Shown here one piece after another: positions 17,542 to 60,886 of a stretch of 60,886 nt of DNA. The DNA lies in IMG/VR virus record IMGVR_UViG_3300006046_000006, positions 1 through 60,886 of that record. One strand, given 5' to 3'. The translations under genes were made by a program, and so were the position numbers. Each line of letters begins with the position of its first letter. Positions within the stretch are counted from its first letter, which is position 1. Source of the stretch: a virus. Lineage: Duplodnaviria > Caudoviricetes. Below the pieces are notes generated by a model. That model was not told the origin of the DNA. It did not search any database and was given only the letters and a program-made list of their open reading frames with translations.

Positions 17542-17750
17542 ATCACTTCCCGATTAGGGCGAGCAAATCCATGTTGATTCTTAGTTCCTCGAATCTCTCG
17601 ATGAATCCTCGCTGCTATCTCGTAAGGATGTTCGTGTGGACGGTCGATGAATCTCTCAGCCATTCTAGCGGTGTCCTTACCAAACTCTTTCCTCAACCAG
17701 TCGAGCATCTCCTCTCGAGATTCATCTTTGTGTTCAGAACGAGAAGTCAT
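17538..17750 (-). CDS. hypothetical protein
   Basis: 70-aa ORF with GAGG RBS between pol and exonuclease. Confidence 0.55.
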   Translation of the reverse strand: MTSRSEHKDESREEMLDWLRKEFGKDTARMAERFIDRPHEHPYEIAARIHREIRGTKNQHGFARPNREVI

Positions 17751-20214
17751 ATACTTCCTCCGGCTTTAGTTCTCGAGCGTCTCCCCAATGGGTTCCAATC
17801 TTGAGGTCTGAGATGATAGGGACATCAAGATCAACACCGAACCACTTCTTGAGCGGGAGGTTTTCCATGGTATCCTTGATGATTGGAAGAGCCAGTGGAA
17901 CATGGTCGTTGTGGATTTCGAAGTTGAGTGCATCATGTACTAGTCCTAAGCATGTCCCCTTAATCCCCTGCTCTTTAAACTGACGGTTGACCAGGATCAT
18001 TGAGATGAGATTCATATCCGAGGCGAAAGATTGCACAGGTGAGTTGATTGCTTGGCGTTCAGCTTCAGCCATGACCCCTTGATCACTGCTATAGATATCA
18101 GGGAGATGCCTCACACGTCCTATGGGCGACTGGACTCGACCGTATTGCTGTACTATTCGTCGCTGACGGTTGTGCCATCCGTAAAGCCCTCGGAATCTTT
18201 CAAAAAACGAACGTCGGATATCAGTCGCCTCTCCGATGGAGAAGACGAGCTCGTACTTCTCGAAGGCCGTAGTGACGAATTTCTTAGCTCCCATACCGTA
18301 GACGAATCCGAAGTTAACTGCCTTAGCTTTCTTACGGTCTTCCTTTGTAACTTTAGACATCGGTATGCCAAGTACCCATGATGCAGTAGCAGTATGTATA
18401 TCTTCATTCCTCTGGTAGATGCCCAGCATCGTTTTGTCTCGGCTGAGAAAAGCGACCACTCGTAGTTCAACCTGCGAGAAATCAGCCTCGACAAAGGTGA
18501 AACCAGGAGGGGCGCCAAAGAGTCCGCGGATGAAAGGGTCCCGTGGGACCTGCTGAAGATTGACTCCTCTAAGGTTCGTCTTTCCTCCAGTGATCTTCTC
18601 AGCATCCTCCTTACCAGAGGAGAGACGTCCCGTGACAGTCCCGAAGAGTTTAAAGGTGGTATGTATGCGGTCATTCTCATCCCTCAATGCGTCGTATCTG
18701 GTTACGTATGTAGAGCAATACTTCTGCCACTTCGCTCGTTCCATGAGCAGAGTGATTACTTCGTAGTTCTTGTGATTCTTCTGCGAGACCTTGAGATCCA
18801 TCATCACTGCTTCTCTTACACTCGGATCACCCAAGCTACCGTCAGACTTTTCTTTTCCTCTCTCAGTAATTGGAAAACCCAGATAGCCGAAAAGCCACCA
18901 TCGCAGGAAGTTAGAAGCATTGAAATTAACCTCCACTGGTTTTCCTTTTGAACTGGATGGCCAACCCATACTTCCGGCTTCTGGGACATGTTTCATCAAC
19001 TCCTGGTCTATCGCATCCCGCATGTCGAATGAGATCTTGATGGCATTGTCGAGGCGTTCCCGATCAATCCAGATCCCATACATCTCAGTCCCGATGAGAT
19101 CTTCGTTGGCTGGCATGATCATCAACTTGAACAACCGCAGCAACCTTGGTTGCTCGATCAGTTGTTGACGAAAGATCTTATAGAGATGGTAAGTATAGTA
19201 AGTGTCCAAAGCGTTATACCGCAGTACAATACGTAGCGGTGTATTGAGCAGGTTCTTAGTTTTGATCGCCCACCCTGGTACACCAAGAAGGATGCGAGCC
19301 AATGGCTTAAGTCCTTTAACGCGGTTTTCGTCCAGAAGGTGAGCCGCCAAGAGAGTGTCAAAAGTGACGCCAATATTAACACCGAAGCGCCTAAGCCACT
19401 TAGCATCGTACTTCCCATTGTGTGCGATCTGCTTCTTTATCTCGCAGAGATCTATGGATAGATACTTCAGAACTTTCTCCCAGGAATTTCGCCAGGGCGA
19501 TTCAGGGTGGTACAGGGGCAGGGCCCATACTTTCTCCACACCGTCATGGGTTATGCATGTGCCTGCCAGAGAGACGATAGCTGCTCCATCACTAAACTCG
19601 GTATCTCCGGTAGTCTCAATATCATAGGAGATGGTATGGCAACGACGAAGTAACTTTCGCAGCGACCTGAGTTGGGGTTTAGTGTAAACAACAGAGATCT
19701 TTGGGATGTGAACAGCGTCGGGTCGCCCAAGAACCTGAGATACGAAGAACTGGATATCAGCTTGCCATCCTGACTTCTGGCCTGGGTTACGGTTAACTGA
19801 ACCAGGGGCCACCGTAGCGACCACGTTATGTGTTTGTTGGGCCAGTACCTGACCTCGGTAATTCGTGATACCCGAATGACCTGTGAGCGCATAGAGCGCC
19901 TCGTTTCCAAAAGCCAGGATCCACTTCGGTTTGATCTTAGCTATCTCTTCCTCGAGATATGGGCGGCATGCCTTGACCTGAGGATTCTTGATATCCTGGT
20001 CGAACGTGCGGCACTTAGCGGCAGCGGTGAAGTACACCCTCCCTAAGTCCAACCCTGCGTTGACCAGCTCATCCTCGATCATCGACTGATAGTTCCCTGA
20101 GTTGGGCATCCTCGACACCACCATGATGTCCGCGCCCTTCGGCCCAAAGCCCCACTGACACACGACATCAGTGGTCTGATGCAGCTTGCACAATGTGCAG
20201 TCAGGGTTTCGCAT
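17734..20214 (-). CDS. polA: family A DNA polymerase with N-terminal UDG family-4-like domain and 3'-5' exonuclease
   Basis: ExoI YDIETTG, ExoII HNGKYD, ExoIII YNALD; TGRLSS, NLQQVP, motif A DFSQVELR, motif B RKKAKAVNFGFVYG, motif C VHDA; N-terminal CTLC...KC...C UDG-like cysteines. Confidence 0.95.
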   Translation of the reverse strand: MRNPDCTLCKLHQTTDVVCQWGFGPKGADIMVVSRMPNSGNYQSMIEDELVNAGLDLGRVYFTAAAKCRTFDQDIKNPQVKACRPYLEEEIAKIKPKWILAFGNEALYALTGHSGITNYRGQVLAQQTHNVVATVAPGSVNRNPGQKSGWQADIQFFVSQVLGRPDAVHIPKISVVYTKPQLRSLRKLLRRCHTISYDIETTGDTEFSDGAAIVSLAGTCITHDGVEKVWALPLYHPESPWRNSWEKVLKYLSIDLCEIKKQIAHNGKYDAKWLRRFGVNIGVTFDTLLAAHLLDENRVKGLKPLARILLGVPGWAIKTKNLLNTPLRIVLRYNALDTYYTYHLYKIFRQQLIEQPRLLRLFKLMIMPANEDLIGTEMYGIWIDRERLDNAIKISFDMRDAIDQELMKHVPEAGSMGWPSSSKGKPVEVNFNASNFLRWWLFGYLGFPITERGKEKSDGSLGDPSVREAVMMDLKVSQKNHKNYEVITLLMERAKWQKYCSTYVTRYDALRDENDRIHTTFKLFGTVTGRLSSGKEDAEKITGGKTNLRGVNLQQVPRDPFIRGLFGAPPGFTFVEADFSQVELRVVAFLSRDKTMLGIYQRNEDIHTATASWVLGIPMSKVTKEDRKKAKAVNFGFVYGMGAKKFVTTAFEKYELVFSIGEATDIRRSFFERFRGLYGWHNRQRRIVQQYGRVQSPIGRVRHLPDIYSSDQGVMAEAERQAINSPVQSFASDMNLISMILVNRQFKEQGIKGTCLGLVHDALNFEIHNDHVPLALPIIKDTMENLPLKKWFGVDLDVPIISDLKIGTHWGDARELKPEEVYDFSF

Positions 20215-20425
20215 TCCATGCCTCGTACAGTCGTCGTAGTTTGCAGACCCGCTCGAACTCAGAAGACCATCCGTAGGCAGTCCTGGGCAATTCACTGTAG
20301 ACCCCTTGAGCAGCTAATCCACAAGCCTCTAGCTGAGTCTTCAGCTTCTCCACGTCGCCCAGCGCATTGCTCAGGTCTTGGCGCATCTTCTCGTACTCTG
20401 CGTCATCCACTTCGATCATCGTCAC
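20201..20425 (-). CDS. hypothetical coiled-coil protein
   Basis: 74-aa ORF coupled to neighbours. Confidence 0.55.
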   Translation of the reverse strand: MTMIEVDDAEYEKMRQDLSNALGDVEKLKTQLEACGLAAQGVYSELPRTAYGWSSEFERVCKLRRLYEAWNAKP

Positions 20426-26364: not shown

Positions 26365-26901
26365 ATGGCACCAAAGACGAAGTCAAGGCCCAAGGCTGCA
26401 CCGGTAGTCGACGAAGTGGACGAACTCGACGACGATGTGGAACTCGAGGAACTTGGGGAAGAGATCGACGACACCCCCAAGAAGAAGGCAAAGCGAGCTG
26501 ACTCCCCGGATTTCGGGATTCAGGAACTCTGCGCCTTCCTCGAGCGCCAGACCGGCAAGGGCTACAAGCCGCGTGAAGTTCGCACCCTCATCCGCAAGAT
26601 GGCACGAGACGGATCGGGTCGCGTCGAACGCGAGATCGTCCCAGGCAATCGGGCACGCTACTCATGGACGGGCACCAAGGATCCTCAGGTTCAGGCGATC
26701 CTGGCTGCCGTCAAGGAGGGCGAGATCGAGTCCAGCCGCAAGGAGGCACTCGACAAGCTGAAGGTCCAAAGCAATGCCAAGAAGGATGCGAAGAAGGCTC
26801 AGGCTGACGCCAAGAACACCGCCAAGGGCAAGACCAAGGTCGCTGAGCCAGATGACGACGATGACGACGCCGATGATCTGGAAGAACTCGACGACGAATA
26901 G
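26365..26901 (+). CDS. putative DNA-binding protein with acidic/lysine-rich tails
   Basis: Only plus-strand gene in the centre of the window; own promoter and terminator; core resembles 10374..10745. Confidence 0.8.
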   Translation: MAPKTKSRPKAAPVVDEVDELDDDVELEELGEEIDDTPKKKAKRADSPDFGIQELCAFLERQTGKGYKPREVRTLIRKMARDGSGRVEREIVPGNRARYSWTGTKDPQVQAILAAVKEGEIESSRKEALDKLKVQSNAKKDAKKAQADAKNTAKGKTKVAEPDDDDDDADDLEELDDE

Positions 26902-26948
26902 ATCGAGCTAGACGAGGGGTAGTCGGTCACCCCTCACCTCGAACACCA

Positions 26949-26993
26949 AAGAAGGGCCCCTGGGTTGTGATTCCTTTCCCAGGGGCCTTTCTT
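26949..26993. terminator. bidirectional intrinsic terminator
   Basis: aagaagggcccctggg...cccaggggcctttctt hairpin between convergent genes. Confidence 0.8.
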
Positions 26994-27002
26994 CGTGTGT
27001 TA

Positions 27003-27218
27003 TCAACCGGTCGGAGGTTGTTCCTCGACATCGTCATCCGGTCCCGGCTCGCGGCCGTGCTTGCTGACGAAGCGCTCCCGATTGACTCGTTTGCGCTCCT
27101 CTTCCCACTGCTCCTCAGTCATGTCGTCAGGGCGTTGACTGCCCCGCACATGACCAGCTGGATTCGGTTGGCTTTGGTCGGGTCGACCTTGACTTCCCGG
27201 GTCTGTTGGCTTGGGCAT
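27003..27218 (-). CDS. small hydrophilic hypothetical protein
   Basis: 71-aa ORF with AAGGAG RBS. Confidence 0.6.
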   Translation of the reverse strand: MPKPTDPGSQGRPDQSQPNPAGHVRGSQRPDDMTEEQWEEERKRVNRERFVSKHGREPGPDDDVEEQPPTG

Positions 27219-27734: not shown

Positions 27735-28550
27735 TTACTTAGTCGGTCGCCAGGTCGTGCCAGACTCGACGACGAGTCGTTTGTATTCCTCCCGGTTGTC
27801 CTCGATATAGGTCGGGAGAGCTGAGTATGTTGGTGAGGCATTTTCGATGGGGCTCAAGTGGCTAAGCTTGCCATTGTCCCAGCGAACGAGCCAGGCCTCG
27901 TATGGATCATCTGACCTTATTTTGTAGAGCGGTGCGCCCATGTCTTCATCCTCTTCTGGTGGTGTGGGTGTGGGTACTTGCGGTGAAGGTGTGGACCCAG
28001 ACAGATCCCACCATCGTTGTTTTGCTGCGTAGGCATTATCACCGGGGCAGTTTGTGTTGTTCACATCGCGGTCGCCTTTGATGACCAAGTCGTTCCCAAA
28101 GTACCTCCTGATCTCCTTCAGAGCAAAGACCGCAGTCTCCTCCAAGTCCGGAGTGATCTGCTCGATCGTCGTGTTGCCCAGGACGCATATGGAGATTGAC
28201 CATTGATCCCATGGCCATCCGGTTCCTCCGCCTTGCGGACCGAGACCGCGTCCATCCATAACGCAGCGGTAGCCGAGCCCGATGTTGTAAGCGATATCTG
28301 CCCATTTTCTCACAGTCCCATCTGCCCAGTATGTGGGCTTGCCATCCTTGTCAAGGATCAATCGACTTAAGTGGTCGCGTTGGATACTGCGCCACTGTTG
28401 CTTCGAAGCCTCCACACTCTTGGGCATGCTCGGGTCAGCGGTACCTGAGTGGTGGAAGTATATCTCAGTCGTTGATGGGCGGATGTTTGACCACCGGTTC
28501 GGTAGGATCAATCCCACATCTTCTCGAGTTAACCATTGAATATCGCTCAT
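27735..28550 (-). CDS. endolysin, N-acetylmuramoyl-L-alanine amidase (Amidase_2/PGRP-like)
   Basis: YFHHSG, WADIAYN, ICVLGN, GDRDV...CPG; Pro/Thr linker and C-terminal domain. Confidence 0.82.
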   Translation of the reverse strand: MSDIQWLTREDVGLILPNRWSNIRPSTTEIYFHHSGTADPSMPKSVEASKQQWRSIQRDHLSRLILDKDGKPTYWADGTVRKWADIAYNIGLGYRCVMDGRGLGPQGGGTGWPWDQWSISICVLGNTTIEQITPDLEETAVFALKEIRRYFGNDLVIKGDRDVNNTNCPGDNAYAAKQRWWDLSGSTPSPQVPTPTPPEEDEDMGAPLYKIRSDDPYEAWLVRWDNGKLSHLSPIENASPTYSALPTYIEDNREEYKRLVVESGTTWRPTK

Positions 28551-34358: not shown

Positions 34359-35195
34359 CTACGACCCGCCCTGGTGATTGGTGCGGATCGTCAAGCTGCC
34401 ACCTGTGAGCGAACCCACACCGGCAGTCATCTGGGCCACGTTCACACCGGCATAGACACCCTTGAATTCGACGATCCAGTCACCGGGACCACCGGTAACG
34501 AGGACATCGCCTGGGGCGATATTCGACAAACCCTCGAGCGCTGTCGTGAGTGCTGCCGTGCTGATGTTGTAAGCCAGTGCGCCGGTCGTTTGAGCGGCAA
34601 ACGTGAGCGTGAATGTACCGCCAGTGGCGTCCGAGATGATCTCTTGGATTTCATTGGAGGTAAGGGCAATCGCAGTCTGCGTCTCATTCCAAGTGATGCG
34701 ATAGAGGTTATCATTCACATCGCCCAGTCCTCGACCAGAACAGTGCGTCACGAAGAATACACCGTCACCGAACTCGCCCTCGAGAGTGTCATCACACTTG
34801 CACTTGTAGATGATGACGTGGACGTCACCACCATCGTCGGCAATGGATTGACCCTCGATGCGGAAGTATCGCCGTGTGTCGGTGATCTTCTTCAGGAAGT
34901 CCTTGACTTCCGTGGTGCCTGTACCCGAGGTCGTAATAGTACCACCGCTGAAGACATTCCAGGCTTCAATGGAGATACCACCTGCCTCAAGTTCCCACTC
35001 AACTGTCGGACCTTTACCGTGGACAGCCACGAGTCGATCATCACCACGCAACTCTTCATAGTCCTCAGCTTCGCTGAATGACAATGTCTGAGACACTGGG
35101 AGATCAACCGTGGTAGCCAAGGTACCGTCCGTGTTGATAGGCGTTATTTTCACATCCCTCAAGCCAAACGGCAATACGGGATCAGTTAGAGCCAT
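34359..35195 (-). CDS. major tail (tube) protein with C-terminal accessory domain
   Basis: LPFGLRDVKITP...ELRGDD...VEWELEAGGIS...YFRIEGQ; C-terminal ATGGTFTLTF...LEGLSNI domain; synteny. Confidence 0.88.
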   Translation of the reverse strand: MALTDPVLPFGLRDVKITPINTDGTLATTVDLPVSQTLSFSEAEDYEELRGDDRLVAVHGKGPTVEWELEAGGISIEAWNVFSGGTITTSGTGTTEVKDFLKKITDTRRYFRIEGQSIADDGGDVHVIIYKCKCDDTLEGEFGDGVFFVTHCSGRGLGDVNDNLYRITWNETQTAIALTSNEIQEIISDATGGTFTLTFAAQTTGALAYNISTAALTTALEGLSNIAPGDVLVTGGPGDWIVEFKGVYAGVNVAQMTAGVGSLTGGSLTIRTNHQGGS

Positions 35196-50878: not shown

Positions 50879-51602
50879 TGTTGTGTCTCCCCATGGTGTC
50901 ATCCACCACGTCGGCGTCAATGTACCCCTGCGTGAGTGCGTACTCGTCGAAGTTCGTCTGGCTGGGGTTCACCATGGCGTGAGCCAGGATGCCCTGCAGC
51001 GTTACTGAGACCTCGGACTCAATGTGCTTGACCGGCTTGCCTATGACATGCTCGATCAGGAACTTAGCAGCATCCAGCTTCACCGCGGCAGGCACCATAG
51101 GCTTGCCCTTCTTATCGACCTTGTCATTCTTGAGGATGTTTGACATCACCCCGAGAGCCTCGATGGTGTGGACATTCATCTCAGTCTTGACTAGCTTCTC
51201 ATACCGTCGGATTATCTCCTCGTGGTACGCCTTGCTGATCCAGGTCGGTTGTTTGCCCCGGAAGCCTCCGCCGGCATCGCGTGGGCGCCCTCGAGCCAGC
51301 TCCTCGTCGTCCCACTCCTCGACGGGCTTGTACAGCATCCTCAGGTCAGCCTCAAGCAACTCCCCTCGACGACGAGCCCTTTTGCGGATCTGCTTGTCGT
51401 TCGTAGCTCGCCTAGGGTCGAGCGGGGCAACCGTATAGCCGTCTGGATCATCTTCCGCCTTCAGCTGGTAAGGTCTGCCCTTACGACCGACCATCGGCTT
51501 CCCTCGAGCGTTTAGGAATGAGTACCTCATATCCAGTTCGCATGGAGTAGCACCAGGGCCATTTTTATAGGCAAATCGAGCCCGTCGTTCTGCGTTTCTC
51601 AT
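50868..51602 (-). CDS. probable terminase small subunit
   Basis: WDDEELARGRPRD..G.FRG, VKLDAAKFLIEHVIGKP helical pattern; upstream of TerL. Confidence 0.6.
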   Translation of the reverse strand: MRNAERRARFAYKNGPGATPCELDMRYSFLNARGKPMVGRKGRPYQLKAEDDPDGYTVAPLDPRRATNDKQIRKRARRRGELLEADLRMLYKPVEEWDDEELARGRPRDAGGGFRGKQPTWISKAYHEEIIRRYEKLVKTEMNVHTIEALGVMSNILKNDKVDKKGKPMVPAAVKLDAAKFLIEHVIGKPVKHIESEVSVTLQGILAHAMVNPSQTNFDEYALTQGYIDADVVDDTMGRHNNGT

Positions 51603-54253
51603 GTGATGAACCCCGCTGGAGGAGAAGTTCCTGGCGAATTGTGCCAATCGACGAATCCACCACCGACTAGATGGTTATTCGACCCAGTAACCCCTGGGCT
51701 AGTGTTGAAGTCGAAGAAGAAGAAGCTAGGATGAACCTGAGCAGGATCATCGACGACTGTGTTGTTCGTAACAACCACATTCGAGTGGACACCGCGACCA
51801 TTGCCCCCGATGCCCGTCTGCGGGTCTGAGAAGTTGCCTGACCCAGGCTCTGGACCCAGATAACGAGCCCATTGTCCAGAGATCGTGTTGTTGTCAACGT
51901 AGATCGGGGAGTCAGGTAGCCCAGCGAACAATATCTGAATGCCTCGACCAGAGACATCGTGAATATTATTGTTGCGGATCATCACCGAACCAATGATGTG
52001 GTTCCCATAAATAGTGCTGAAGTCACCGAAGTTACCCACACTGTGGTACAGGTCCAGAATAATCCCATTGCGGTCAGCCGAGGGGTTACCATCACTAGCC
52101 AGCTGGTTGTAGACGTGGTTATTCTCGATGAGAACTCTCTCACCACCATTACTATCCCACCGCCACCCCTGACCAATGGAGATCCCTGATCCAGCACCAC
52201 CAAAGCCATAAGCAGCGTTGCCCGAGGCATCATGGATCGTGCAGTTGCGGATGATGATCTTGTCACAGGACCAGAAGGCGACCCCGTTGCGACCAATAAC
52301 ACCGCTGCCAGGAATCGGCTCTACTGTGAGCCCATCAACCGTGATATTACCGCCAGGCAGTCCATTTGTGGGGGAGCCATTATTGGTACGGCTGGCATCC
52401 TGGTAGATGCCCTCTGCGTTCGTCGAGTTACCCAAGGCTTGTATCTTGCCTGGACCAACGAGAGTGAGATTGCGGCACCCTCCATAAAACTCCACACCAG
52501 AGCCACCAGGACCCCGCAGGATGCCTCCACTCTGGAATTCCACGATGACATTGCCGAAATCCTTGTTGTAGAACAGAATACCAGCGCCGGTAGGCCCATT
52601 CCAAGTGCCAGACGGCACCAAGACTCGCTTACCAGCAATCGAGGAGTACGGAAGCTCCAATATCTGCTGGAGTGACCCGTTCACGCCTACGACATAATCC
52701 GGAGTCCCTCCGGTACCGCCTCCAGCACCAATGACAATGCTGTGAGTCTTAGCATTCGACCCCGTCGCATTCGTGGCAGTCAACTGCACGTTGTATGTGG
52801 AGGCACCGGCAAAGCTATGCGTCGGATTTTGCTGTGTGGAGGTAGCCCCATCGCCAAACAGCCACGCCCATGACGTCGGAAAGTTTGTGCTAGAGTCGTT
52901 AAACTGTATCGTCTGTCCCACGACTCCGCTCGAGGGGTTCATCGTGAACTCAGCTACCGGAGCAACACCCCCTGTACCACCACCGCCAGCGCCGGTGAAC
53001 GTGTAGCTGTCGAGGTCTGAGTATGTGTACTCCAACCCCGAGTGCTCTATGCGGATGACGTTGTTGCCAAGCGTCAGCGGAATCGTGATGGCACTAGACT
53101 GCGCAAATCTAGCAGGGCTCGTCCAGTCGCTCGAGGTGTTGGGCAATGATACTGTACCAGCAATAGCCCCATTCACTCGGATATTGACCGTGACAGTACC
53201 CTCTGCTGGGTTGCCCTGAGCATACCTTATCGAGAATGTGTAACTACCACCGACCGCAGCCGAGAAGTTAATCTGGTTGACGTCTCCCGTCAGACCAAAT
53301 GTGCCGATGTAGCCCGTGCCTGTGTAGCCCGCATACTGCGTGGATATAACCGCCCCACCCTCGACCGTGCCGGACTCAGCCTCCACGATCGTGGATGTCG
53401 AGCCCACCAGCAACGGCCTAGCCGTCATAGCAGCCGTGGCAGGCGCCAAGTTTATGCCTCGTGAGGGCAGCAAGGGCACCGCGGTCATGGCAAAGCTCTT
53501 CGGCGCCAGCGTCAGCGCTCCCACACCACCAGTAATGGTGAGGGGCTGAGCCCTCATATTCACAACCTTCGGCTGCAGAGCAATAACCTGCTCAACCCCC
53601 ACACTCACCAGGAGTTTGTTCGCCACTAGCTGAGTAAGAGCTGGTGTCAGGGAAGCACCCACCACGTTGCCCACCGAAATCGTGAGCGGCCGTGCCTGGA
53701 ACTGAATAGTGTTGGGCAAAGCACGAATGCCTCCGAAAACATCCGTCGTGTTGGTGTTCCACCGCATCCGCCAGAGTTCGCCCGTCGAATCTCCGATGCC
53801 CAGCCCCTCACACTTCGTGAGAAGGAATGTGCCCTCCGAGAATGAGCCCTCGATCGACCCATTGACCTTACACCGTCGTATGACGATGTGTAGATCCGAG
53901 CCATCGTCGTTTATACTCTGTCCCTCAATCACAAAGTACGGTCTAACGTCGGTATCGAGCTTAATTAGCTCACGGAAGCCGGCCCCAGACACCAGGGAAG
54001 CTCCGGTGAGGACCTGCCAAGCCTCGAATGAGATGCCACCGGCCTCAATCTCCCACTCGACCATCGCCCCGGTGCCCTCCATGGCAACGTTGCGATCATC
54101 GCTCTTCAGAAGCTCGATACTTTCCGTCTCACGGAACGTCACGACTCGCCCTACTGGCAGATCTACTGGTGTCCCTACCCCGAGTTCCCCGATAAACGGC
54201 GTGATCTTCACGTCGCGTATCCCGAACGGGAGATATGTCTCAACCAGCGTCAT
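51599..54253 (-). CDS. tail-tube paralog fused to repeat stalk, CBM6/35-like, PKD and beta-helix domains
   Basis: N-terminal ~170 aa aligns with 34359..35195; EAESG...YTGTGY...IRYA (CBM35); PVAEF...WLFGDG...QNPTH (PKD); beta-helix paralogous to 4524..6224. Confidence 0.85.
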   Translation of the reverse strand: MTLVETYLPFGIRDVKITPFIGELGVGTPVDLPVGRVVTFRETESIELLKSDDRNVAMEGTGAMVEWEIEAGGISFEAWQVLTGASLVSGAGFRELIKLDTDVRPYFVIEGQSINDDGSDLHIVIRRCKVNGSIEGSFSEGTFLLTKCEGLGIGDSTGELWRMRWNTNTTDVFGGIRALPNTIQFQARPLTISVGNVVGASLTPALTQLVANKLLVSVGVEQVIALQPKVVNMRAQPLTITGGVGALTLAPKSFAMTAVPLLPSRGINLAPATAAMTARPLLVGSTSTIVEAESGTVEGGAVISTQYAGYTGTGYIGTFGLTGDVNQINFSAAVGGSYTFSIRYAQGNPAEGTVTVNIRVNGAIAGTVSLPNTSSDWTSPARFAQSSAITIPLTLGNNVIRIEHSGLEYTYSDLDSYTFTGAGGGGTGGVAPVAEFTMNPSSGVVGQTIQFNDSSTNFPTSWAWLFGDGATSTQQNPTHSFAGASTYNVQLTATNATGSNAKTHSIVIGAGGGTGGTPDYVVGVNGSLQQILELPYSSIAGKRVLVPSGTWNGPTGAGILFYNKDFGNVIVEFQSGGILRGPGGSGVEFYGGCRNLTLVGPGKIQALGNSTNAEGIYQDASRTNNGSPTNGLPGGNITVDGLTVEPIPGSGVIGRNGVAFWSCDKIIIRNCTIHDASGNAAYGFGGAGSGISIGQGWRWDSNGGERVLIENNHVYNQLASDGNPSADRNGIILDLYHSVGNFGDFSTIYGNHIIGSVMIRNNNIHDVSGRGIQILFAGLPDSPIYVDNNTISGQWARYLGPEPGSGNFSDPQTGIGGNGRGVHSNVVVTNNTVVDDPAQVHPSFFFFDFNTSPGVTGSNNHLVGGGFVDWHNSPGTSPPAGFIT

Positions 54254-54596: not shown

Positions 54597-55124
54597 CTAT
54601 TCTTTGCAGATTGCTAGTACGTTTCTCTGACTATCAATGGCGATCCGAGCATGTTCTGCTGCAGCGAGGTCCGCAGCCGTGATTCTAGCCGTGTCGGCCT
54701 GAAAGTCCGCATCGTTGACCGGCTCCCTGACGACCACATCGTGCAGCACGTTGAGAAGCAGGAGAATAGCCTCATTGCCAGCAAGTATTCCCTCTGCCTT
54801 AGCGATGTTCAAATCGCCTGTAATCGCGTCGCGGCACTCAGAAGTCTCGCTAGCGTCAGCCAACTGAGCCTTCAGACTGCTCCGTTCAGATATAGCCTCT
54901 ATCTGCGCCAGCAGTATCACTGCCAGAAATAGGCATAGCGCTATGGCGAACCACAGCCGGGGTTCACTGGGCCTCAGCCCCATCCTCCGGTTCGTCTTAC
55001 GGAGTGTTTTGACCAGCGAGTCCACCTCTTCCTTGGGTGGCACTGTAGCAACCAACTCATCAACTTCCCTAGAGGAAGTCGGCACCATCGGATTCTCCCC
55101 AGAGGTTGGGGGTTGAGTTGTCAT
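54597..55124 (-). CDS. membrane-anchored protein
   Basis: One TM segment (LWFAIALCLFLAVILLA) then a helical domain. Confidence 0.65.
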   Translation of the reverse strand: MTTQPPTSGENPMVPTSSREVDELVATVPPKEEVDSLVKTLRKTNRRMGLRPSEPRLWFAIALCLFLAVILLAQIEAISERSSLKAQLADASETSECRDAITGDLNIAKAEGILAGNEAILLLLNVLHDVVVREPVNDADFQADTARITAADLAAAEHARIAIDSQRNVLAICKE

Positions 55125-55483
55125 CGTGCCTCCAGGACAGCGATCCGTCGTCTCAAAGTGTCAATCTCCACAGCCTTCGCGTAGTCTTTCTGCTGCAGAT
55201 CGCTTATGTCGATGGCCTTCTGGTTATCTCGGACTATGCAGTCCTTTAGTCCCTGAGACAGACCATCAATAACACCCGATTGACTCGTCACGGTCTTCTG
55301 CAGAGCCTCTATAGCTCCTGCACGCTCACGTAAGTTGGCCGTTTCTCTCCTCGCCTCGGAGGCAGCATCTTTAGCTCTTTGCTGAGCGACGTAGTTCCTA
55401 GAGGCGACGAAGATACCAACGGCTGTGGCAATACACCCCAGGATACCGCCTATCAAGGCAATAGCGGCTTGAGGTGATCCCAC
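55121..55483 (-). CDS. membrane protein with coiled coil (holin-like accessory)
   Basis: N-terminal TM then heptad repeats; GGAGG RBS; first gene of the late operon. Confidence 0.7.
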   Translation of the reverse strand: MGSPQAAIALIGGILGCIATAVGIFVASRNYVAQQRAKDAASEARRETANLRERAGAIEALQKTVTSQSGVIDGLSQGLKDCIVRDNQKAIDISDLQQKDYAKAVEIDTLRRRIAVLEAR

Positions 55484-55514
55484 ACCCCCTCCATTCTTGC
55501 TGTGTCGGTCTAAG

Positions 55515-55705
55515 AGGGTCCTCCGTCAAGTCCACACCAGCAAATCGTCGGACGGTTAGGCTTACCCCGCCGACGTCTTCCCCAGAGACTTTCTGCGGAA
55601 GTTCCGAAACGCACCATGCGTGGGCTTTGAATAAAACTCCCCAGAGTTAAAGGGTGGACCCTGAGGAAAAAGTTTCGTCCGGAGTAGCGCTCGACGGAGA
55701 ACCCT
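55515..55705 (-). ncRNA. putative structured non-coding RNA or late-operon leader (about 190 nt)
   Basis: 16-bp terminal stem whose two mismatches become G-U only on the minus strand; at least four internal helices; starts a few nt after a canonical promoter. Confidence 0.7.
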
Positions 55706-55710
55706 ATAAA

Positions 55711-55739
55711 AGTCTATCAAAGCCTAAAGCTCGTGTCAA
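55711..55739 (-). promoter_or_regulatory. SigA-like promoter for the structured RNA and late operon
   Basis: TTGACA cgagctttaggctttga TAGACT (17-bp spacer). Confidence 0.8.
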
Positions 55740-55785
55740 ATACCCCGAGCCGGAAAATATATGACTTTCGTCACAGCTTCTGACG

Positions 55786-55995
55786 TTAGCTGTGCTTCTC
55801 TATAGCCCCAGGGTGTTTTGTCTTCCACTTGCCGCCGAAGGCGTAGGTGTAGTTGGGGTCTTGTTTGCGGTAGAAGGGCTTGGGATTGTTAGCCCGTTCC
55901 TTTGCTTTCTGGTCCCTCTTCCGTGCCGGCTCGTTTCGTGCAACTTCAAAAGCGTTGGCGGGAGGGTTGTCAGGATTCCTTTTTCCAAGTGGCAT
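55786..55995 (-). CDS. small basic hypothetical protein
   Basis: 69-aa ORF with RBS. Confidence 0.55.
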   Translation of the reverse strand: MPLGKRNPDNPPANAFEVARNEPARKRDQKAKERANNPKPFYRKQDPNYTYAFGGKWKTKHPGAIEKHS

Positions 55996-55997
55996 GG

Positions 55998-56219
55998 TTA
56001 TCCCCTATCGAGGTGTTGGAGCATCATGTCGATGTCGTCGAGGCTGGCGTAGATCATGTCGTAGAGGTGGTGATCTTCTGGGTCTGGGTCGATCATCTCA
56101 ACTAAACCCTTGATCTGCTTCAGCGCTCGCTCCATGGAGATGGATGATTGTCCACCCCATCCCTGGAGAATTGAGGGAAGTTTGTCCTGTAGTTGCATGT
56201 TGATTCCTTTGTGTCGCAT
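55998..56219 (-). CDS. hypothetical protein
   Basis: Downstream of TTGACA-N17-TATAAT (56230-56258); start may be the MQLQD codon. Confidence 0.6.
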   Translation of the reverse strand: MRHKGINMQLQDKLPSILQGWGGQSSISMERALKQIKGLVEMIDPDPEDHHLYDMIYASLDDIDMMLQHLDRG

Positions 56220-56229
56220 TCATATTCCC

Positions 56230-56258
56230 ATTATAATTTACCCCGTTGCCGTTGTCAA
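56230..56258 (-). promoter_or_regulatory. consensus sigma70/SigA promoter
   Basis: TTGACA acggcaacggggtaaat TATAAT. Confidence 0.8.
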
Positions 56259-56544
56259 TAACTTCGAGGACTAAAGGGACCATGGGGGTTCGTTTTGGGT
56301 GGAGGGAGAACAGGGGGCGTGCGGAATGGGTTGTGTTCTGGAACACATCCTGATGGCAGGGACATTGGGCGTGTGCGGAATGGTCCGCGGAGCGGATTGG
56401 CAGGGCGGGGTGGGATCGGAAGGGGACGCGGGGGGTTCGCCATCAATAAATTTTTTATTTATTTTTTGTGACATATATCACAAATATTTTTTTTGGTTCG
56501 GCCGACCGATTTTTATTCGGCCGACCGAACCAATATTCGCGCCG

Positions 56545-56769
56545 TTACTTCAATTCGGCGACAACCGTTTTACGCGCCTTTTTTGCGGCAAAATCGGCGA
56601 TCCATTCTTCGGTGGTGCGAGCTTCCAAATTCCATCGCCCGCCCGATCCGGGTTGTTCGACCGTGATTTTGCGGAGGATATTGCGGACGCTTTTTTCATC
56701 CATATTTAGGACCTTTGCGAGATCCTTCGGAGTCCGAACCTGAGCCATTTTTTCAGCCATTTTTTTCAT
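56545..56769 (-). CDS. small HTH-like DNA-binding protein
   Basis: TPKDLAKVLNMDEKSVRNILRK...PGSGGRW; resembles 10374..10745; promoter TTGACC-N17-TTTAAT at 56806-56834. Confidence 0.7.
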   Translation of the reverse strand: MKKMAEKMAQVRTPKDLAKVLNMDEKSVRNILRKITVEQPGSGGRWNLEARTTEEWIADFAAKKARKTVVAELK

Positions 56770-56819
56770 CCTTTTTTCGGGGCCGACCGTTTCGGCCACA
56801 ACTCAATTAAAGCACACTT

Positions 56820-56963
56820 TTAGACTTTGGTCAAGCGATTTTGCGAAATTATTTGTCGGATCATTTTGTCCGAAAAATCGTACTCATTTAAAACGTCCAT
56901 TGCATTTTGGATCACCTCAAAAGCAGTCTGGACAATTTTTCGCTCGCCGTTGGTTAAGTTCAT
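56820..56963 (-). CDS. 47-aa hypothetical protein
   Basis: Hand-translated MNLTNGERKIVQTAF...; AAGGA RBS and TTGACT-N18-TAAAAT upstream. Confidence 0.5.
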   Translation of the reverse strand: MNLTNGERKIVQTAFEVIQNAMDVLNEYDFSDKMIRQIISQNRLTKV

Positions 56964-57024
56964 TTTTTCGTCCTTTCTTCGTTTCGTCGATTTTACCTTA
57001 ATTCGAGCCTAGAAGTCAAGCCGA

Positions 57025-57110
57025 AATAAATATTTTTTCGTTAGGCTACCTTAATTAATTATATTGGCGCGCCGAATTAATTATATTTGGGCGCCCGAAT
57101 ATGCCGCGTT
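57025..57110. repeat. AT-rich palindromic tandem repeat in the divergent non-coding region
   Basis: aattaattatattggcgcgccg / aattaattatatttgggcgcccg. Confidence 0.65.
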
Positions 57111-57336
57111 AACTACCCCTAAGCCGCGCACTTCCGCGCACCTTCAGAGCGCCACTTAGTCCGCCCTAAGATCGCGTCTTGGGGTTTGCGTAGCGGACCC
57201 GTTGGGACACACAAGTCTCCTGGCGGTCCCACCTGGACAAAGAATCTCGGCCGACGGGGCTCTTGATGGTTCCAAATCTCGGGCGACGGGGCTCTCATCG
57301 GCGTTTTTTTTCGGACCGCTAAGTTTTCGCCGGACG

Positions 57337-57378
57337 GTGACATGGTTACGCGGATTTGATAAAATGGGGGTATCAAAT
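57337..57378 (+). promoter_or_regulatory. SigA-like promoter with overlapping palindrome
   Basis: GTGACA-N17-TAAAAT; ATTTGATA-N9-TATCAAAT (57354-57378), same arms as at 1112-1136. Confidence 0.75.
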
Positions 57379-57399
57379 CAAAGGCAAGGGGAAAAAACC

Positions 57400-57654
57400 A
57401 TGAATCTCAAAATCGCCGCAATCGGGTTATCGCTGGGATTATCGGTTCTGACCGATCAATGCCAACCGCCCGAAACACCGCATGTTTTGGTGAGCGAAGC
57501 AGCATATGAGGATTTCGAGGTGCCCGACGTCTCTCCACCCACTGAACTCTGGGTGCAAATGGACGCGACCAACTGGAATCCCGACATGCACTTCCGCTGC
57601 TTCAACATGGGTGGCCATCTCATCGACGATATCTGCCACGAGGTAGATTACTAA
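57400..57654 (+). CDS. small secreted or lipoprotein-like protein
   Basis: MNLKIAAIGLSLGLSVLTDQC signal-like N-terminus; directly after the promoter. Confidence 0.65.
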   Translation: MNLKIAAIGLSLGLSVLTDQCQPPETPHVLVSEAAYEDFEVPDVSPPTELWVQMDATNWNPDMHFRCFNMGGHLIDDICHEVDY

Positions 57655-57664
57655 GGAGGAAATC

Positions 57665-57928
57665 ATGGAATGCGGACATGCTCCGGAACTCGATTGCGGC
57701 TGCTGGGTCGATGAGGAGGGATCGATCCACCGCCACAGCTTTAGATTTCTCCCTGGAGACCGGGTGTACTGGAGCCTTAGTCGGTTCGGAGCCTTAAAAG
57801 GAGTCACGGGAACAGTTCAACGCTGGTCCGGAGGAAAAGGCTATGTGCTCTGGGATGACCACTGCAAAAACTGGGCCCCAAGCTCATTCCCCTCTAACTT
57901 CGAGATCCGCCGCATAGCCGAAGACTGA
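57665..57928 (+). CDS. hypothetical protein (SH3/KOW-like pattern)
   Basis: AAGGAGG RBS; FLPGDRVYW...GTV...VLWD. Confidence 0.65.
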   Translation: MECGHAPELDCGCWVDEEGSIHRHSFRFLPGDRVYWSLSRFGALKGVTGTVQRWSGGKGYVLWDDHCKNWAPSSFPSNFEIRRIAED

Positions 57929-58232
57929 CGATCCAGAACGGGAACGCTCCGCTTGCCGGAGCTTCCCTTCATGTCGTGGACGCGGTCCCACCTAGACCCA
58001 GATGCGGATCCTGTGACGGACCCACCTAGACCAAGCCTACGGCCCAAAAAGTGGTTGGAGGTTACCCGTGGCTGGAGGCCAGCTCTCATAGGACGGGGCT
58101 CTCATAAGCCCACGTGAGGTTGGACGGGATTGTTGTAACCCTGAGAAACTCCTGAGGCTTTGGTCAACCCTGTCGAACGACTTGGACACCATTCTCACGA
58201 TACCTTCCGCGTACCAGGCCCTATCCACCCAA

Positions 58233-58535
58233 TCACCTCCCCACTGCCTTTTTGAAGACCAACCACCAAAATCCCACGCAGCCCGCAACCATCAATACCC
58301 AACAAATCACCACTACCCAATCCCACCTTCGTGGATCCCAAGCCTCTAGAAAGCCATCCCACACCGCAGACCTCATAGCCTTCCGCTCAGCCCTCTTCAT
58401 CTGCCTCCTCCGTTTACTATCCATCACTCCCCACCACTCCTGCAGCTGATTAGCCTTATCCTGCTGTTCTTTCTCCTTCCTCCATTCCTTGATCGCATCG
58501 TTCCACTCGTCATGATAATCCTCATTCAGTCCCAT
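58233..58535 (-). CDS. hypothetical membrane protein
   Basis: Charged N-terminus, C-terminal TM segment. Confidence 0.6.
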   Translation of the reverse strand: MGLNEDYHDEWNDAIKEWRKEKEQQDKANQLQEWWGVMDSKRRRQMKRAERKAMRSAVWDGFLEAWDPRRWDWVVVICWVLMVAGCVGFWWLVFKKAVGR

Positions 58536-58651
58536 TTCTTCCCTCAGTTCTGGATTCGTGAAGCCTTAAAATCACCCATCAATCGCGTTGGGGAGCCTTA
58601 CGGAAGCCCTCAATCGACCTCAAACAACTCCGAGCGTCATCGAGCGAGTCG

Positions 58652-58879
58652 TTAAAATTCGTCAAGCCCCTCGGCCAGCATGTTGGTGAAGTCAGTCCAG
58701 ATCCTCTCCCGCCCTCCAAGCTGTGCAATCCTCTCCTCGGTCAACTTCCGCATCATCTTATTAGCCTCGGTCTTCTCCCACTGCTTGACCCGCTTCACGG
58801 CGGCCCTCAGTGTCGCATACTCCAACAGAGTATACTCTTCCTTCCCCAGCTTTGATCCACTCACGGTCTGCTCATCCAT
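58652..58879 (-). CDS. hypothetical protein
   Basis: Start MDEQTV coupled to the upstream stop (TAATG), GGAGG RBS. Confidence 0.6.
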   Translation of the reverse strand: MDEQTVSGSKLGKEEYTLLEYATLRAAVKRVKQWEKTEANKMMRKLTEERIAQLGGRERIWTDFTNMLAEGLDEF

Positions 58880-59235
58880 TAAAAATCCTCCAGATAGTAA
58901 TAGGCTTGTTGTCGTGCAGCCTCGTCGCATGGCTCAGAGTATGCATGTGAGTTCGTTCGGAAGGTGTGCAACATCCCCGCCAAAACAATCCCCACACCCT
59001 GAGCAGTCCTGATATCCCTCAGTCCGAAATCTCGTTCGTAAGCTTCAGCAACATCCTCAGCCGCTTTGATCGCAGCCTCCATGCACTTCGTGACCAATTC
59101 CGCAACTTCCCCCGCCTGCCCATAGTCATATGGAGGCGGAGTGTCAGGAAACCCCGTACTCGGATCTCGATATACCTCATCACCAAAGATATCCATGATA
59201 ATCCCATTCTTCCCCTCGGTTTCATCAGCCATCAT
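58879..59235 (-). CDS. hypothetical protein
   Basis: Co-directional coupled ORF. Confidence 0.6.
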   Translation of the reverse strand: MMADETEGKNGIIMDIFGDEVYRDPSTGFPDTPPPYDYGQAGEVAELVTKCMEAAIKAAEDVAEAYERDFGLRDIRTAQGVGIVLAGMLHTFRTNSHAYSEPCDEAARQQAYYYLEDF

Positions 59236-59525
59236 CCACACTCCCAAATCAACGCAGTGTGCAAGCAGGCCAGCATCAGCAAATCCTGATTCTGAGCCAT
59301 CCTCACAACCTGATATCCCCCACTGCCATCGGCAGCCTGATCTACCATTCTCCTGAAGAGCTTCATAGCCATCGTAAGCACTCTGGCCTGAGAGCCGGGC
59401 AAGCCCTCGAGCTCAACCAGGTGATCAAGCAGCCTCCTGGGCCTTAGCCCTCGTTCATTGAAGAGGTCAATGGAAAGATTCTCCAAGACCAATTCTTCCT
59501 CAGTCATTCCATATGCCAAGTTCAT
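59232..59525 (-). CDS. hypothetical protein
   Basis: 97-aa ORF with AAGGAG RBS. Confidence 0.6.
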   Translation of the reverse strand: MNLAYGMTEEELVLENLSIDLFNERGLRPRRLLDHLVELEGLPGSQARVLTMAMKLFRRMVDQAADGSGGYQVVRMAQNQDLLMLACLHTALIWECG

Positions 59526-59546
59526 CCTTCGGTCTCCTTTGTCGGT

Positions 59547-60062
59547 TTATGTGTCATGTCCGTATGGATAGATGGCGCGGATAGCCTCGCATTCCGGGTC
59601 AGCGTCGTCAAAGCAGGCGGCCCAGTCGCAGAAGTGCAGCGGGCAAAGAGAGTGATTGATCGTCAGTTTGGTGATATCGTCGCGTGAGAATCGGTAAGCG
59701 ATGATGACCTCCATCAACTCAGAAATCCTCGCAAACGCAGCGGCCTCTTCAGCCTCATCAGCATCGGGGTAGACTTCCCCAGGATTCATGAAGTCAGGAT
59801 GGAAAGTCAATTCACTCCCCCCAGCCTCAGGAGAATGTTGCAAGCAGCAAAGCACGTTTCGTAGAGCGCTGTCAGCATGGTCATGTTGATCGAAGTCAGC
59901 CCAGCATCCCCAGCGAGGATCGTGGACGCGGTCGTGTTCGTCATTCCCAGTCGTGTGGTTGCGGTTGCATTCGTCAGTGTGGGTGGTCAATCGAGTCAAT
60001 TCGGCCATTGCGCCTCTCGATGCCTTCCCCTCCCTGACATCCTGTTCATACCTTGATTCCAT
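59547..60062 (-). CDS. His/Cys-rich hypothetical protein
   Basis: SLCPLHFCDWAACFDD...C; downstream of GTGACA-N17-TATGAT (60111-60139). Confidence 0.7.
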   Translation of the reverse strand: MESRYEQDVREGKASRGAMAELTRLTTHTDECNRNHTTGNDEHDRVHDPRWGCWADFDQHDHADSALRNVLCCLQHSPEAGGSELTFHPDFMNPGEVYPDADEAEEAAAFARISELMEVIIAYRFSRDDITKLTINHSLCPLHFCDWAACFDDADPECEAIRAIYPYGHDT

Positions 60063-60110
60063 TTTTGCCCCTTTATGCCTGTCAATCGCGGTTTGATTGA
60101 TCATGAATTC

Positions 60111-60139
60111 ATCATATCAAACCCGTCATCCCTTGTCAC
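60111..60139 (-). promoter_or_regulatory. SigA-like promoter
   Basis: GTGACA agggatgacgggtttga TATGAT, followed by ATCAATCAAA. Confidence 0.7.
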
Positions 60140-60166
60140 CCCTCCCATTCCGCGGATTTTCCTCCC

Positions 60167-60421
60167 TCACCCTCTCACCAGAGACTGGATGTAGCCGATG
60201 TAGAAGTCGTCGTTCATGTCATCATCCGGCAGATGTGCGAGATAGAAAGCGTTGAATCCCGCATTACCCAGCGTCTCGATCCACTCGTAGGACTCCCTCT
60301 CCATCGCATCGTAGCAAGGCTCGCAGAGCGGTTGGATCTCGCAGCCGCAGAAGTAGTCGCAGCCGCAACTTGTGGTTTCAGGCATAGCCTTGTTCGGGCA
60401 TTCCTTGGTTGAGCAGTTCAT
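60167..60421 (-). CDS. Cys-rich hypothetical protein
   Basis: 84-aa coupled ORF. Confidence 0.6.
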   Translation of the reverse strand: MNCSTKECPNKAMPETTSCGCDYFCGCEIQPLCEPCYDAMERESYEWIETLGNAGFNAFYLAHLPDDDMNDDFYIGYIQSLVRG

Positions 60422-60747
60422 TCCCCCATCACCCCAGAGTCTAGTCGAGCATCAATGTCCTGCATTGTCATTGGCGTCCAGGTGGAATCGTCGTTGGTGT
60501 ATTCGTGCACCCAGATAGCCTCGAAGTCGTCGCGGCATGTGAAGCAAATGACCCGGTTGTCATCGTTGTTCTCAGCCCTGTTTGCCCAGTTCGTGCAATA
60601 AGCCCTGACTACCCATACCCTCTCGAGTCCCTCGAGTTCAAGCAGTTCATCGAAAGATTGTTGCACGTTGGCAAAGTTGTAGTCGTCGAGATGTTCAGAC
60701 TCAGCGCGTCGCAGAGTCCTGATCAGCTTTTCGGTCAATTCAGTCAT
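60418..60747 (-). CDS. hypothetical protein
   Basis: Start MTELTEK; ATGA overlap with a truncated upstream ORF that runs off the window end. Confidence 0.6.
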   Translation of the reverse strand: MTELTEKLIRTLRRAESEHLDDYNFANVQQSFDELLELEGLERVWVVRAYCTNWANRAENNDDNRVICFTCRDDFEAIWVHEYTNDDSTWTPMTMQDIDARLDSGVMGE

Positions 60748-60886
60748 CGGGCCACCCAACCCTTCAGTTCATTGGCGATGGCGTCGCGGAGATCGTCAGA
60801 TTCGTTAACCGCGTCGCGTTCAGATCCCGCGTCGAGGATAGAGGAGATCACATTGGCGATGAAATCCTGGATCGAGTCGGTGAGTT

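Follow-up and report, generated by a model that had tools for sequence, protein, structure and literature searches.

A structured RNA leader with paired ends at the head of a soil phage virion module

How phages time and maintain their very long late operons is largely unknown outside model phages, and above all in uncultured soil phages. The question is raised by the 60,886-nucleotide (nt) stretch analyzed here (the window; IMG/VR record IMGVR_UViG_3300006046_000006), one complete virus record whose virion module forms a one-directional gene block of ~28 kb. A first-pass annotation, made from the sequence alone, had placed a host-type promoter and a multi-helix RNA at the head of this module, and both claims were borne out: the element is a leader of 191 nt (55705..55515, minus strand) that begins 5 nt (TTTAT) after the -10 hexamer of its promoter. 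What would such an RNA do in front of the virion genes? We conclude that it is a new RNA motif that lacks a counterpart in Rfam and belongs to a known general kind, the cis-acting structured leader of a phage operon; modest covariation among four sequences argues for the motif. Protection of the 5′ end of the virion-module mRNA seems its likeliest job, a ranking that we hold tentatively and with less than even confidence.

A promoter and a closing helix in four phages

A search with the capsid protein of this phage yielded three complete related phages, G001, G002 and G003 (64%, 60% and 47% identity, respectively), of which G001 and G002 are syntenic with the window across most genes. A pattern combining the promoter with the motif of the first helix arm added one more relative, L031, whose downstream genes match those of G002. 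In its strict form this promoter-plus-arm pattern retrieved three loci from viral contigs (G001, G002 and an identical copy of the G002 leader), nine from metagenome contigs (two copies of G001/G002, L031 as the one new locus, and six unrelated loci, several of which are tRNA promoters) and seven from genome contigs (one identical to the window and six unrelated). A second pattern returned the same three loci from viral contigs. The leader motif is absent from the distant phages that were scanned, namely G003, Gordonia phage Suzy and Microbacterium phage Krampus. As delimited by these searches, the leader family has four distinct members at present. Candidates for the homologs that the first-pass annotation had proposed to collect were found at the virion-module heads of three relatives (G001, G002 and L031), and the closing helix described below is present in 4/4 leaders.

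The predicted promoter, TTGACA-N17-TAGACT on the minus strand, was confirmed at 55739..55711. It matches 10/12 consensus positions of the sigma-70 type; the -10 hexamer occupies 55716-55711, and the 17-nt spacer ends in TGA, so that a TG stands just before the -10. A scan for TTGAC[AT]-N16-18-TANNNT, which is independent of the element, gave three sites in G001 and seven in G002, and exactly one site in each of these genomes was TTGACA-N17-TGATAGACT, located immediately upstream of the terS-like gene and virion module. Among the promoter-like sites listed, the TGATAGACT -10 occurs once per genome, at the virion-module head, and the remaining listed sites of the window, G001 and G002 bear different -10 sequences, commonly TGATATGAT. 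The transcripts differ as well: the first 90 transcribed nt fold at -25.3 to -40.3 kcal/mol downstream of the TGATAGACT sites and at -8.0 to -23.4 kcal/mol downstream of the other listed sites. Within the window the stricter pattern TTGACA-N16-18-TANNNT is enriched (6 sites vs 0.88 expected; 1/100 shuffles reaches 6). Between 55.7 and 27.3 kb the minus strand has no promoter-like site scoring at least 10/12 other than the leader promoter, which fits a single long transcription unit.

All four leaders start with YCGUYGAG a few nt after the -10, and this motif pairs with a downstream arm. The resulting closing helix begins at leader position 6, 5, 5 and 7 after the -10 in the four leaders, and a purine (G, G, A and G) stands at the seventh nt after TAGACT, the distance at which transcription usually starts. 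Since the helix starts at positions 5-7 and the start distance is 7, the predicted first nucleotide would already be paired. When the downstream sequence was shuffled 2000 times, the length of the paired run (Table 1) was attained in 1, 9, 6 and 45 shuffles for the window, G001, L031 and G002, respectively. At the 11 helix positions that the leaders share, both partners change at four (-6, G-C/A-U; -4, U-G/G-C/A-U; -3, C-G/A-U/G-U; +3, C-G/U-G/U-A), one partner changes at four, and three are invariant (C-G, G-C and U-A), forming a CGU/ACG core that is the same in all four leaders. The four helices contain nine G-U pairs and no A-C inside, A-C oppositions being found at the helix ends only. The first-pass annotation had argued for selection at the RNA level from G-U pairs that would be A-C on the other strand; this argument stands, and the relatives add weight to it. 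The sense strand of G001 folds at -25.3 kcal/mol vs -25.3 for the antisense strand (z -2.67 vs -0.77), that of L031 at -22.4 vs -17.5, and that of G002 at -38.0 vs -27.8.

What the helix encloses is variable. The paired domain measures 48 nt in L031, 67 nt in G001, ~67 nt in G002, where the leader is an irregular 28-bp hairpin, and 191 nt in the window. A hairpin with AGGG..UCC.CCC in its loop recurs among the leaders, and hairpin P5 of the window may, from its resemblance in the alignment, be the counterpart of an inner GUCGC/GCGAC helix in G001. We infer that ~110-140 nt of the 191 nt are a lineage-specific expansion, which arose partly by duplication. Closer to the window, soil relatives with 92-97% identity occur in three metagenome runs, and single contigs of soil relatives covered the element from 55515 to ~55609 only, with the 5′ arm outside their coverage. 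The 3′ arm of one such relative is GAUGGGGGACCC, in which both internal changes would keep pairing (U-A to U-G and G-C to G-U), and the indels seen in soil relatives, at 55502 and at 55514/55515 (insertions in two relatives at the latter), lie outside the helix.

The absence of a known family, noted at first sight, was upheld by the searches. Against Rfam 15 the whole window gave 0 matches at gathering score, and the three matches over 55400-55850 at E<=10 were noise (the best, snoU61, scored 14.5 bits vs a gathering score of 55, E 3.6); L030, L031 and L032 gave 0 Rfam matches. That the element is not a tRNA was likewise confirmed, as ARAGORN reported 0 tRNA or tmRNA genes in the window. Searches by blastn returned no match for 55400-55850 in 50,697 phage records and merely 14-20-nt chance matches for the element in five related virus records. 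No relatives were obtained from viral contigs through three proteins encoded between the leader and terS (an 884-amino-acid (aa) protein, P0002 and P0001), or from metagenome contigs through P0001. In a search, not an exhaustive one, of the literature on phage late-operon leaders, antitermination, 5′ stabilizers and mycobacteriophage late promoters, no description of the motif surfaced.

Two other loci came up beside the four leaders. An unrelated metagenome contig (L027, 203-260) carries TTGACA-N17-TGATAGACT; nine nt farther on, ACGUUGAGGG-AAUUA-CCCUCAACGU forms a hairpin of 10 perfect bp, whose CGUUGAGG/CCUCAACG arms are also those of the G002 leader. It may be a distant simple-hairpin relative or a coincidence. 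A 29-nt inverted repeat in G001 (28260-28473, equal to L015 8260-8473) was considered as an analogue of the leader and rejected as a divergent, unrelated regulatory region. Its arms are 156 nt apart and lie between a plus-strand and a minus-strand gene, in an operator- or switch-like setting.

Fold of the leader and its junction with the first gene

The end-to-end pairing proposed at first was confirmed: in the closing helix P1, AGGGTTCTCCGTCGAG (55705-55690) pairs with CTTGACGGAGGACCCT (55530-55515) over 16 bp, including two G-U, with a pair probability of 0.98 and with 159 nt between the arms. The 191-nt RNA folds at -90.1 kcal/mol vs -65.1 ± 4.7 in 200 dinucleotide shuffles (z -5.33; 0/200 as good), and the opposite strand of the same stretch at -73.1 kcal/mol (z -3.23). 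In the minimum-free-energy (MFE) fold there are 68 pairs, 8 of them G-U, and P1 together with three further short helices makes an irregular stem of roughly 28 bp. Six interior or closing helices had been proposed, and they fared unequally: four are robust (0.90-0.99), CGCA/UGCG is moderate (0.43), and UCCG..GAAAC/GUUUCGGA is not favored, as its pair probability is 0.00-0.14 and forcing it costs ~9 kcal/mol. Hairpin A (UUCCUCAGGG/CUCUGGGGAG; pair probability 0.96) is directly followed by a U-run, GUUUUAUU (55637-55630), which gives it a terminator-like appearance; our terminator scanner accepts loops of 3-8 nt only and did not flag this site. Hairpins A and B have similar arms (UUCCnCAG ... 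CUCUGGGGA), and the motif CTCTGGGGA is present twice in the leader, at 55579 and 55638.

Is this RNA a discrete noncoding RNA (ncRNA) or the leader of the message that follows? Both had been suggested. The GGAGG of the ribosome-binding site lies 22 nt past the 3′ arm, in agreement with the ~20 nt first estimated, and the GTG start codon of the first gene, P0001, is at 55483, 32 nt past the arm. Of the 15 differences listed for soil relatives within P0001 (55160-55279), 11 by hand count affect third codon positions, and P0001 appears to be a real coding gene under purifying selection. A UUAGACC box in the spacer resembles UAAGACC in G001 and UAAGCC in L031. In the terminator scan of the minus strand, nothing terminator-like was found from 55515 on, where the 3′ arm ends, and in the relatives the same promoter and closing helix lead directly into the first gene of the virion module, in G001 straight into the terS-like gene. 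Because no terminator follows and a ribosome-binding site and a real gene start lie so close downstream, we consider the element probably a cis-acting 5′ leader; of the two original suggestions, the cis leader fits and the discrete ~190-nt ncRNA does not.

In the window, a ~4-kb block (55483-51599) that is missing from the syntenic G001 and G002 lies between the leader and terS. It holds P0001, P0002, an 84-aa open reading frame (ORF) and the 884-aa protein, which has a major-tail-like N-terminus: the first ~200 residues encoded by this ORF (51599-54253, minus strand), upstream of the terS-like gene, are paralogous to the phage's own major tail protein (34359-35195), and the part beyond them has no family match. 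At the start of P0001, the Shine-Dalgarno sequence GGAGGGGG is predicted to pair with GGAUCACCUC in codons 2-5 (55451-55492, minus strand), and its bases are mostly paired in the ensemble (unpaired probability 0.01-0.16 for 6/8); GGAUCACCUC resembles the 3′ end of 16S rRNA. A pairing of the C-rich loop with the ribosome-binding site was also considered and rejected, since an equally good 12-nt duplex arose in 179, 105, 188 and 71 of 200 shuffled domains.

Table 1. Features of the leader, its surroundings and its counterparts in relatives (positions of the window)
Feature	Position	Strand	Description
-35 hexamer TTGACA	55739..55734	minus	same hexamer and spacing in G001, G002 and L031
Extended -10 TGATAGACT	55719..55711	minus	identical nonamer in G001, G002 and L031
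Predicted transcription start	55705..55704	minus	purine, 7th nt after the -10; 1st or 2nd base pair of the closing helix
P1 5′ arm AGGGUUCUCCGUCGAG	55690..55705	minus	holds the conserved CGUYGAG; mean pair probability 0.98
Hairpin A	55638..55667	minus	10-bp stem UCCUCAGGGU/ACUCUGGGGA, C-rich loop CCACCCUUUA
Small hairpin CGCA-UGG-UGCG	55610..55620	minus	moderate support, mean pair probability 0.43
Hairpin B, CUUCC-G-CAGA / UCUG-G-GGAAG	55577..55601	minus	pair probability 0.97-0.98
Hairpin P5, CGUCGG-CGG / CCG-U-CCGACG	55546..55575	minus	pair probability 0.90-0.99
P1 3′ arm CUUGACGGAGGACCCU	55515..55530	minus	pairs with the P1 5′ arm
Spacer	55484..55514	minus	unstructured; UUAGACC box and Shine-Dalgarno GGAGGGGG (55492-55485)
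P0001, first gene	55121..55483	minus	120 aa; N-terminal hydrophobic segment and coiled-coil-like region
Small genes	60.9-55.8 kb	minus	first block in reading direction
Virion module	55.5-27.3 kb	minus	terS-like gene, large terminase, portal, major capsid, major tail and tape-measure-sized genes
Replication module	after the virion module		SNF2 helicase, PolA, PD-(D/E)XK nuclease, primase
Closing helix, window			AGGGUUCUCCGUCGAG / CUUGACGGAGGACCCU; run 16 bp (15-16 counted)
Closing helix, G001			AUGAUCCGUUG / UGACGGGUCAU; run 11 bp
Closing helix, L031			AUAAUCCGUUG / CAACGGGUUGU; run 11 bp
Closing helix, G002			GUUCGUUGAGG / CCUCAACGGAU; run 11 bp

What the leader may do

Host RNA polymerase would start at the conserved sigma-70-type promoter TTGACA-N17-TGATAGACT, and the first nucleotides transcribed would be the 5′ arm of a helix whose 3′ arm sits 22 nt ahead of the first ribosome-binding site, so that the mRNA would have a base-paired 5′ end with no single-stranded overhang. 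Such a helix could shield the triphosphate 5′ end from 5′-end-dependent decay, by pyrophosphohydrolase, RNase E or RNase J, and so keep the very long late message alive; a bound protein could add a second layer of control. Selection would act on the end-closing helix with its CGU/ACG core and leave the interior free to vary, and the version in the window would have grown to 191 nt by means of extra hairpins, two of which resemble duplicates of each other. The unit that selection has apparently kept across phages with only ~60% capsid identity is thus a cassette of three parts, a host-type promoter with a distinctive -10, a start site inside a helix, and a variable interior.

We rank protection of the 5′ end first because what the leaders conserve is a helix in which the predicted 5′ end would be buried, as in the 5′-terminal stem-loop stabilizers, and the interior is variable. 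These stabilizers, such as the ompA and papA leaders of E. coli and the ermC/aprE-type 5′ structures of Bacillus, have a helix at the very first nucleotides, as the predicted start would give here, and by analogy the leader would share with them a place in the 5′ untranslated region (UTR) upstream of an accessible spacer and ribosome-binding site and an action in cis on the downstream message. The stabilizers are simple hairpins, whereas here the helix closes a whole domain of 48-191 nt, its core is conserved, and the message is a phage late operon. In the available text of PMC3997798, a bacterial RNA pyrophosphohydrolase is described as requiring at least two unpaired 5′ nucleotides, and the reference list of that paper includes the classic reports on 5′-terminal stem-loop stabilizers. 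For a mycobacterium, the available text of PMC11532794 states that 5′ UTR structure outside the ribosome-binding region predicts mRNA half-life. If the leader is a stabilizer, it would be a compact natural part for long-lived transcripts.

Several points weigh against 5′-end protection or against the family on which it is built. A plain hairpin would suffice for protecting a 5′ end, and the fact that the CGU/ACG core never varies and that the AGGG..UCC.CCC loop is conserved suggests that something else may recognize the sequence itself. The start site at 55704/55705, and hence the flush paired 5′ end, is predicted from promoter geometry, and the general promoter scan of the window is not enriched (8 sites vs 7.0 ± 2.8 in shuffles). 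The family consists of only four distinct sequences, and these are not independent, because G001 and L031 share most of the 5′ arm; L031 was found by a pattern that required the promoter and the CGUYGAG motif, and the pair table of the helix alignment was anchored by hand on that motif. In the MAFFT alignment, the short leaders came to lie opposite the 3′ half of the element of the window and not opposite its 5′ arm. A covariance model built from the window element alone found nothing in G001-G003 (best E 0.75) or in fragments, and a model of the three short leaders missed the window element, its best match in the window lying elsewhere (E 1.4). Symmetric half-sites of a DNA operator can co-vary, too. 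Finally, a sliding scan of the whole genome (200 nt, 50-nt steps) found other windows that are equally stable for their G+C, such as 26851-27050 at -93.9 kcal/mol; since other windows fold about as strongly, fold energy alone does not single out the element.

The main alternative is that the leader acts on transcription, which we regard as possible although doubtful. By itself or with an early phage protein, the RNA would modify the polymerase, as in antitermination by put, EAR, conAn2 or canT, or it would relieve an internal attenuator, and in this way time the 28-kb module. With the promoter (55739-55711) on one side and the first module gene on the other, it is placed like the known RNA antiterminators, which, in the available text of PMC11658703 and PMC8191782, sit in the nascent transcript at the head of long mobile-element operons. 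Not only the pairing but also the sequence of the CGU/ACG core is conserved, the C-rich hairpin loop recurs, hairpin A (10 bp) and GUUUUAUU could together act as a terminator inside the leader, ~75 nt from its start, and the -10 TAGACT, unlike that of other listed promoter-like sites, would suit separate timing. However, terminator-like sites in the module occur at chance (17 vs 13.1 ± 3.8 and 9 vs 9.4 ± 3.3, rho-dependent sites not being scorable), so that nothing obvious needs overriding. The hairpin-plus-U-run is not conserved either, as there is none in G002 and only weak U-rich tails follow the whole domain in G001 and L031, and neither the size nor the sequence of the interior, the place expected for a polymerase-binding fold, is constant (arms 159 nt apart vs domains of 48-67 nt). 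No candidate antiterminator protein was identified; beside the promoter there is no conserved regulator gene, the genes just upstream differing across the four phages.

Two known systems can be compared. In phage lambda, the constitutive host-type promoter PR′ serves a late operon of roughly 26-28 kb through a 194-nt "6S" leader and the strong intrinsic terminator tR′, with Q bound at the promoter. The host-type promoter, the leader of ~190 nt and the late operon of ~28 kb are shared, but the lambda leader ends in a terminator, and the leader of the window has none, its sole hairpin-plus-U-run being internal and not conserved. Nor was a Q-like gene found, no search having been aimed at one. 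The antitermination RNAs put of HK022, EAR of B. subtilis, conAn2 of pLS20 and canT of Tn916 are, according to the available text of PMC11658703, also structured RNAs with several stem-loops just past the promoter of a long operon; the leader of the window differs from them in having no sequence or Rfam similarity, no downstream excess of terminators and an interior that is variable among relatives.

A bolder version of transcriptional control, which we judge unlikely, is an undescribed class of cis-acting RNA switch. In this case RNA polymerase, or else a phage protein made early, would be the ligand of the nascent end-closing domain (CGU/ACG core plus C-rich hairpin), and binding would make transcription processive and correctly timed, which would let this clade of soil phages run the virion module from a host-type promoter; the 191-nt form would be an elaborated one, with hairpin A and the U-run as a built-in attenuator. 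A polymerase- or protein-binding switch of this sort would be a new member of the very short list of RNAs that control whole mobile-element operons.

Less probable again is a processing site for RNase III or another double-strand-specific nuclease, at which a cut would remove the leader and set the stability or translation of the downstream message. Phages T7 and lambda have RNase III processing sites, and the irregular stem of roughly 28 bp in the window and the 28-bp irregular hairpin of G002 would offer suitable substrates. The uninterrupted helix is just 11 bp in G001 and L031, however, which is short for RNase III, and what is conserved is the position at the 5′ end rather than the length of the helix.

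We give the same low probability to the element working at the level of DNA, for instance as a pair of operator half-sites where a repressor would bind to control the late promoter, or being a functionless sequence with a fortuitous fold. The arms do form a DNA inverted repeat just downstream of the promoter, the half-sites of a dimeric DNA-binding protein co-vary as well, a regulatory region of G001 contains a further inverted repeat, of 29 nt and unrelated, and a fortuitous fold would be in keeping with the other genome windows of equal stability. Yet a distance between the arms of 159 nt here and far less in the 48-67-nt domains of the relatives is hard to fit to a fixed protein geometry. 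On the transcribed strand, each of the nine non-Watson-Crick pairs inside the four helices (9/9) is G-U, with no A-C among them, the interior hairpins carry G-U pairs too (8 among the 68 MFE pairs), and in 3/4 leaders the fold of the sense strand is more stable than that of the antisense strand, with a tie in the fourth.

Least probable of all is that termination or processing sets free a separate phage ncRNA of ~190 nt, which would serve as a decoy, packaging RNA or regulator. Such an RNA would account for the promoter of its own, the strong multi-helix fold and the paired 5′ and 3′ ends typical of stable ncRNAs, but no terminator-like site lies past the 3′ arm, the ribosome-binding site is only 22 nt downstream, the 48-67-nt versions of the relatives continue directly into the first gene, and there is no Rfam match, the phi29 packaging RNA (pRNA) family included if the library holds it. 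A packaging RNA, one of the roles first floated, is unlikely, as the phage has an ordinary large terminase and portal, with which a pRNA-type motor is not expected. The pRNA of phi29 (about 120-174 nt) also has its own promoter, paired ends and interior hairpins, and phi29-like podoviruses lack a classical terminase. In addition to its large terminase and portal, the phage of the window differs in its siphovirus-type tail, and the versions of the leader in relatives are far smaller than pRNA.

The phage, its genome and other regulatory sites

The window comes from an uncultured soil siphovirus-like phage with a siphovirus-type tail module. Nearly all of its long ORFs lie on the minus strand. 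The large terminase (phrog_2, 4.4e-30) and the portal (phrog_64, 3.5e-29) are both present in the window, and the capsid protein is ~46% identical to counterparts in phages of Gordonia, Microbacterium and Mycobacterium; the G+C content of the genome is only 52.6%. Parts of the window occur in 17 public runs, all of which (17/17) are soil metagenomes, with no RNA run listed among them.

A contig from a metagenome bin in a genome collection (L043, 1-8000) matches 55686-60886 and 1-2743 of the window at 100% over 7,944 aligned bases and joins the window end to the window start via 56 nt. Because this contig bridges both ends, the genome is circular or circularly permuted. Its bin is labelled Acidobacteria, a weak host lead that conflicts with the actinophage-like capsid and that leaves the host uncertain.

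Other parts of the genome attracted attention in passing. The ORF for the family-A DNA polymerase (17734-20295, minus strand) encodes an N-terminal domain of the uracil-DNA-glycosylase superfamily (residues 72-177), followed by 3′-5′ exonuclease and polymerase domains. Directly after the stop codon of a helix-turn-helix-like 84-aa ORF (56799-56545) is a 17-nt near-perfect palindrome, TTGGTTCGGCCGACCGA / TCGGCCGACCGAACCAA (56486-56536); an A-run flanks it on the minus strand, and it is hence no classical terminator on that strand. The stretch 26851-27050, the most stable 200-nt minus-strand window of the genome (-93.9 kcal/mol) and among the most stable on the plus strand, lies at the boundary of the virion and replication modules, where its neighbors are the sole block of plus-strand genes and, on that same strand, a TTGACA-N17-TATGAT promoter at 26288. 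A second class of promoters, TTGACA-N17-(TGA/TTA)TATGAT, occurs on the minus strand of the window at 10823-10795, 4365-4337 and 1153-1125. Each of these promoters precedes a short A-rich leader of conserved sequence, AUCAAAU(C/A)A(A/G)GGGAAA, and a gene start within ~35-80 nt; they look like phage early or middle promoters with a common leader motif.

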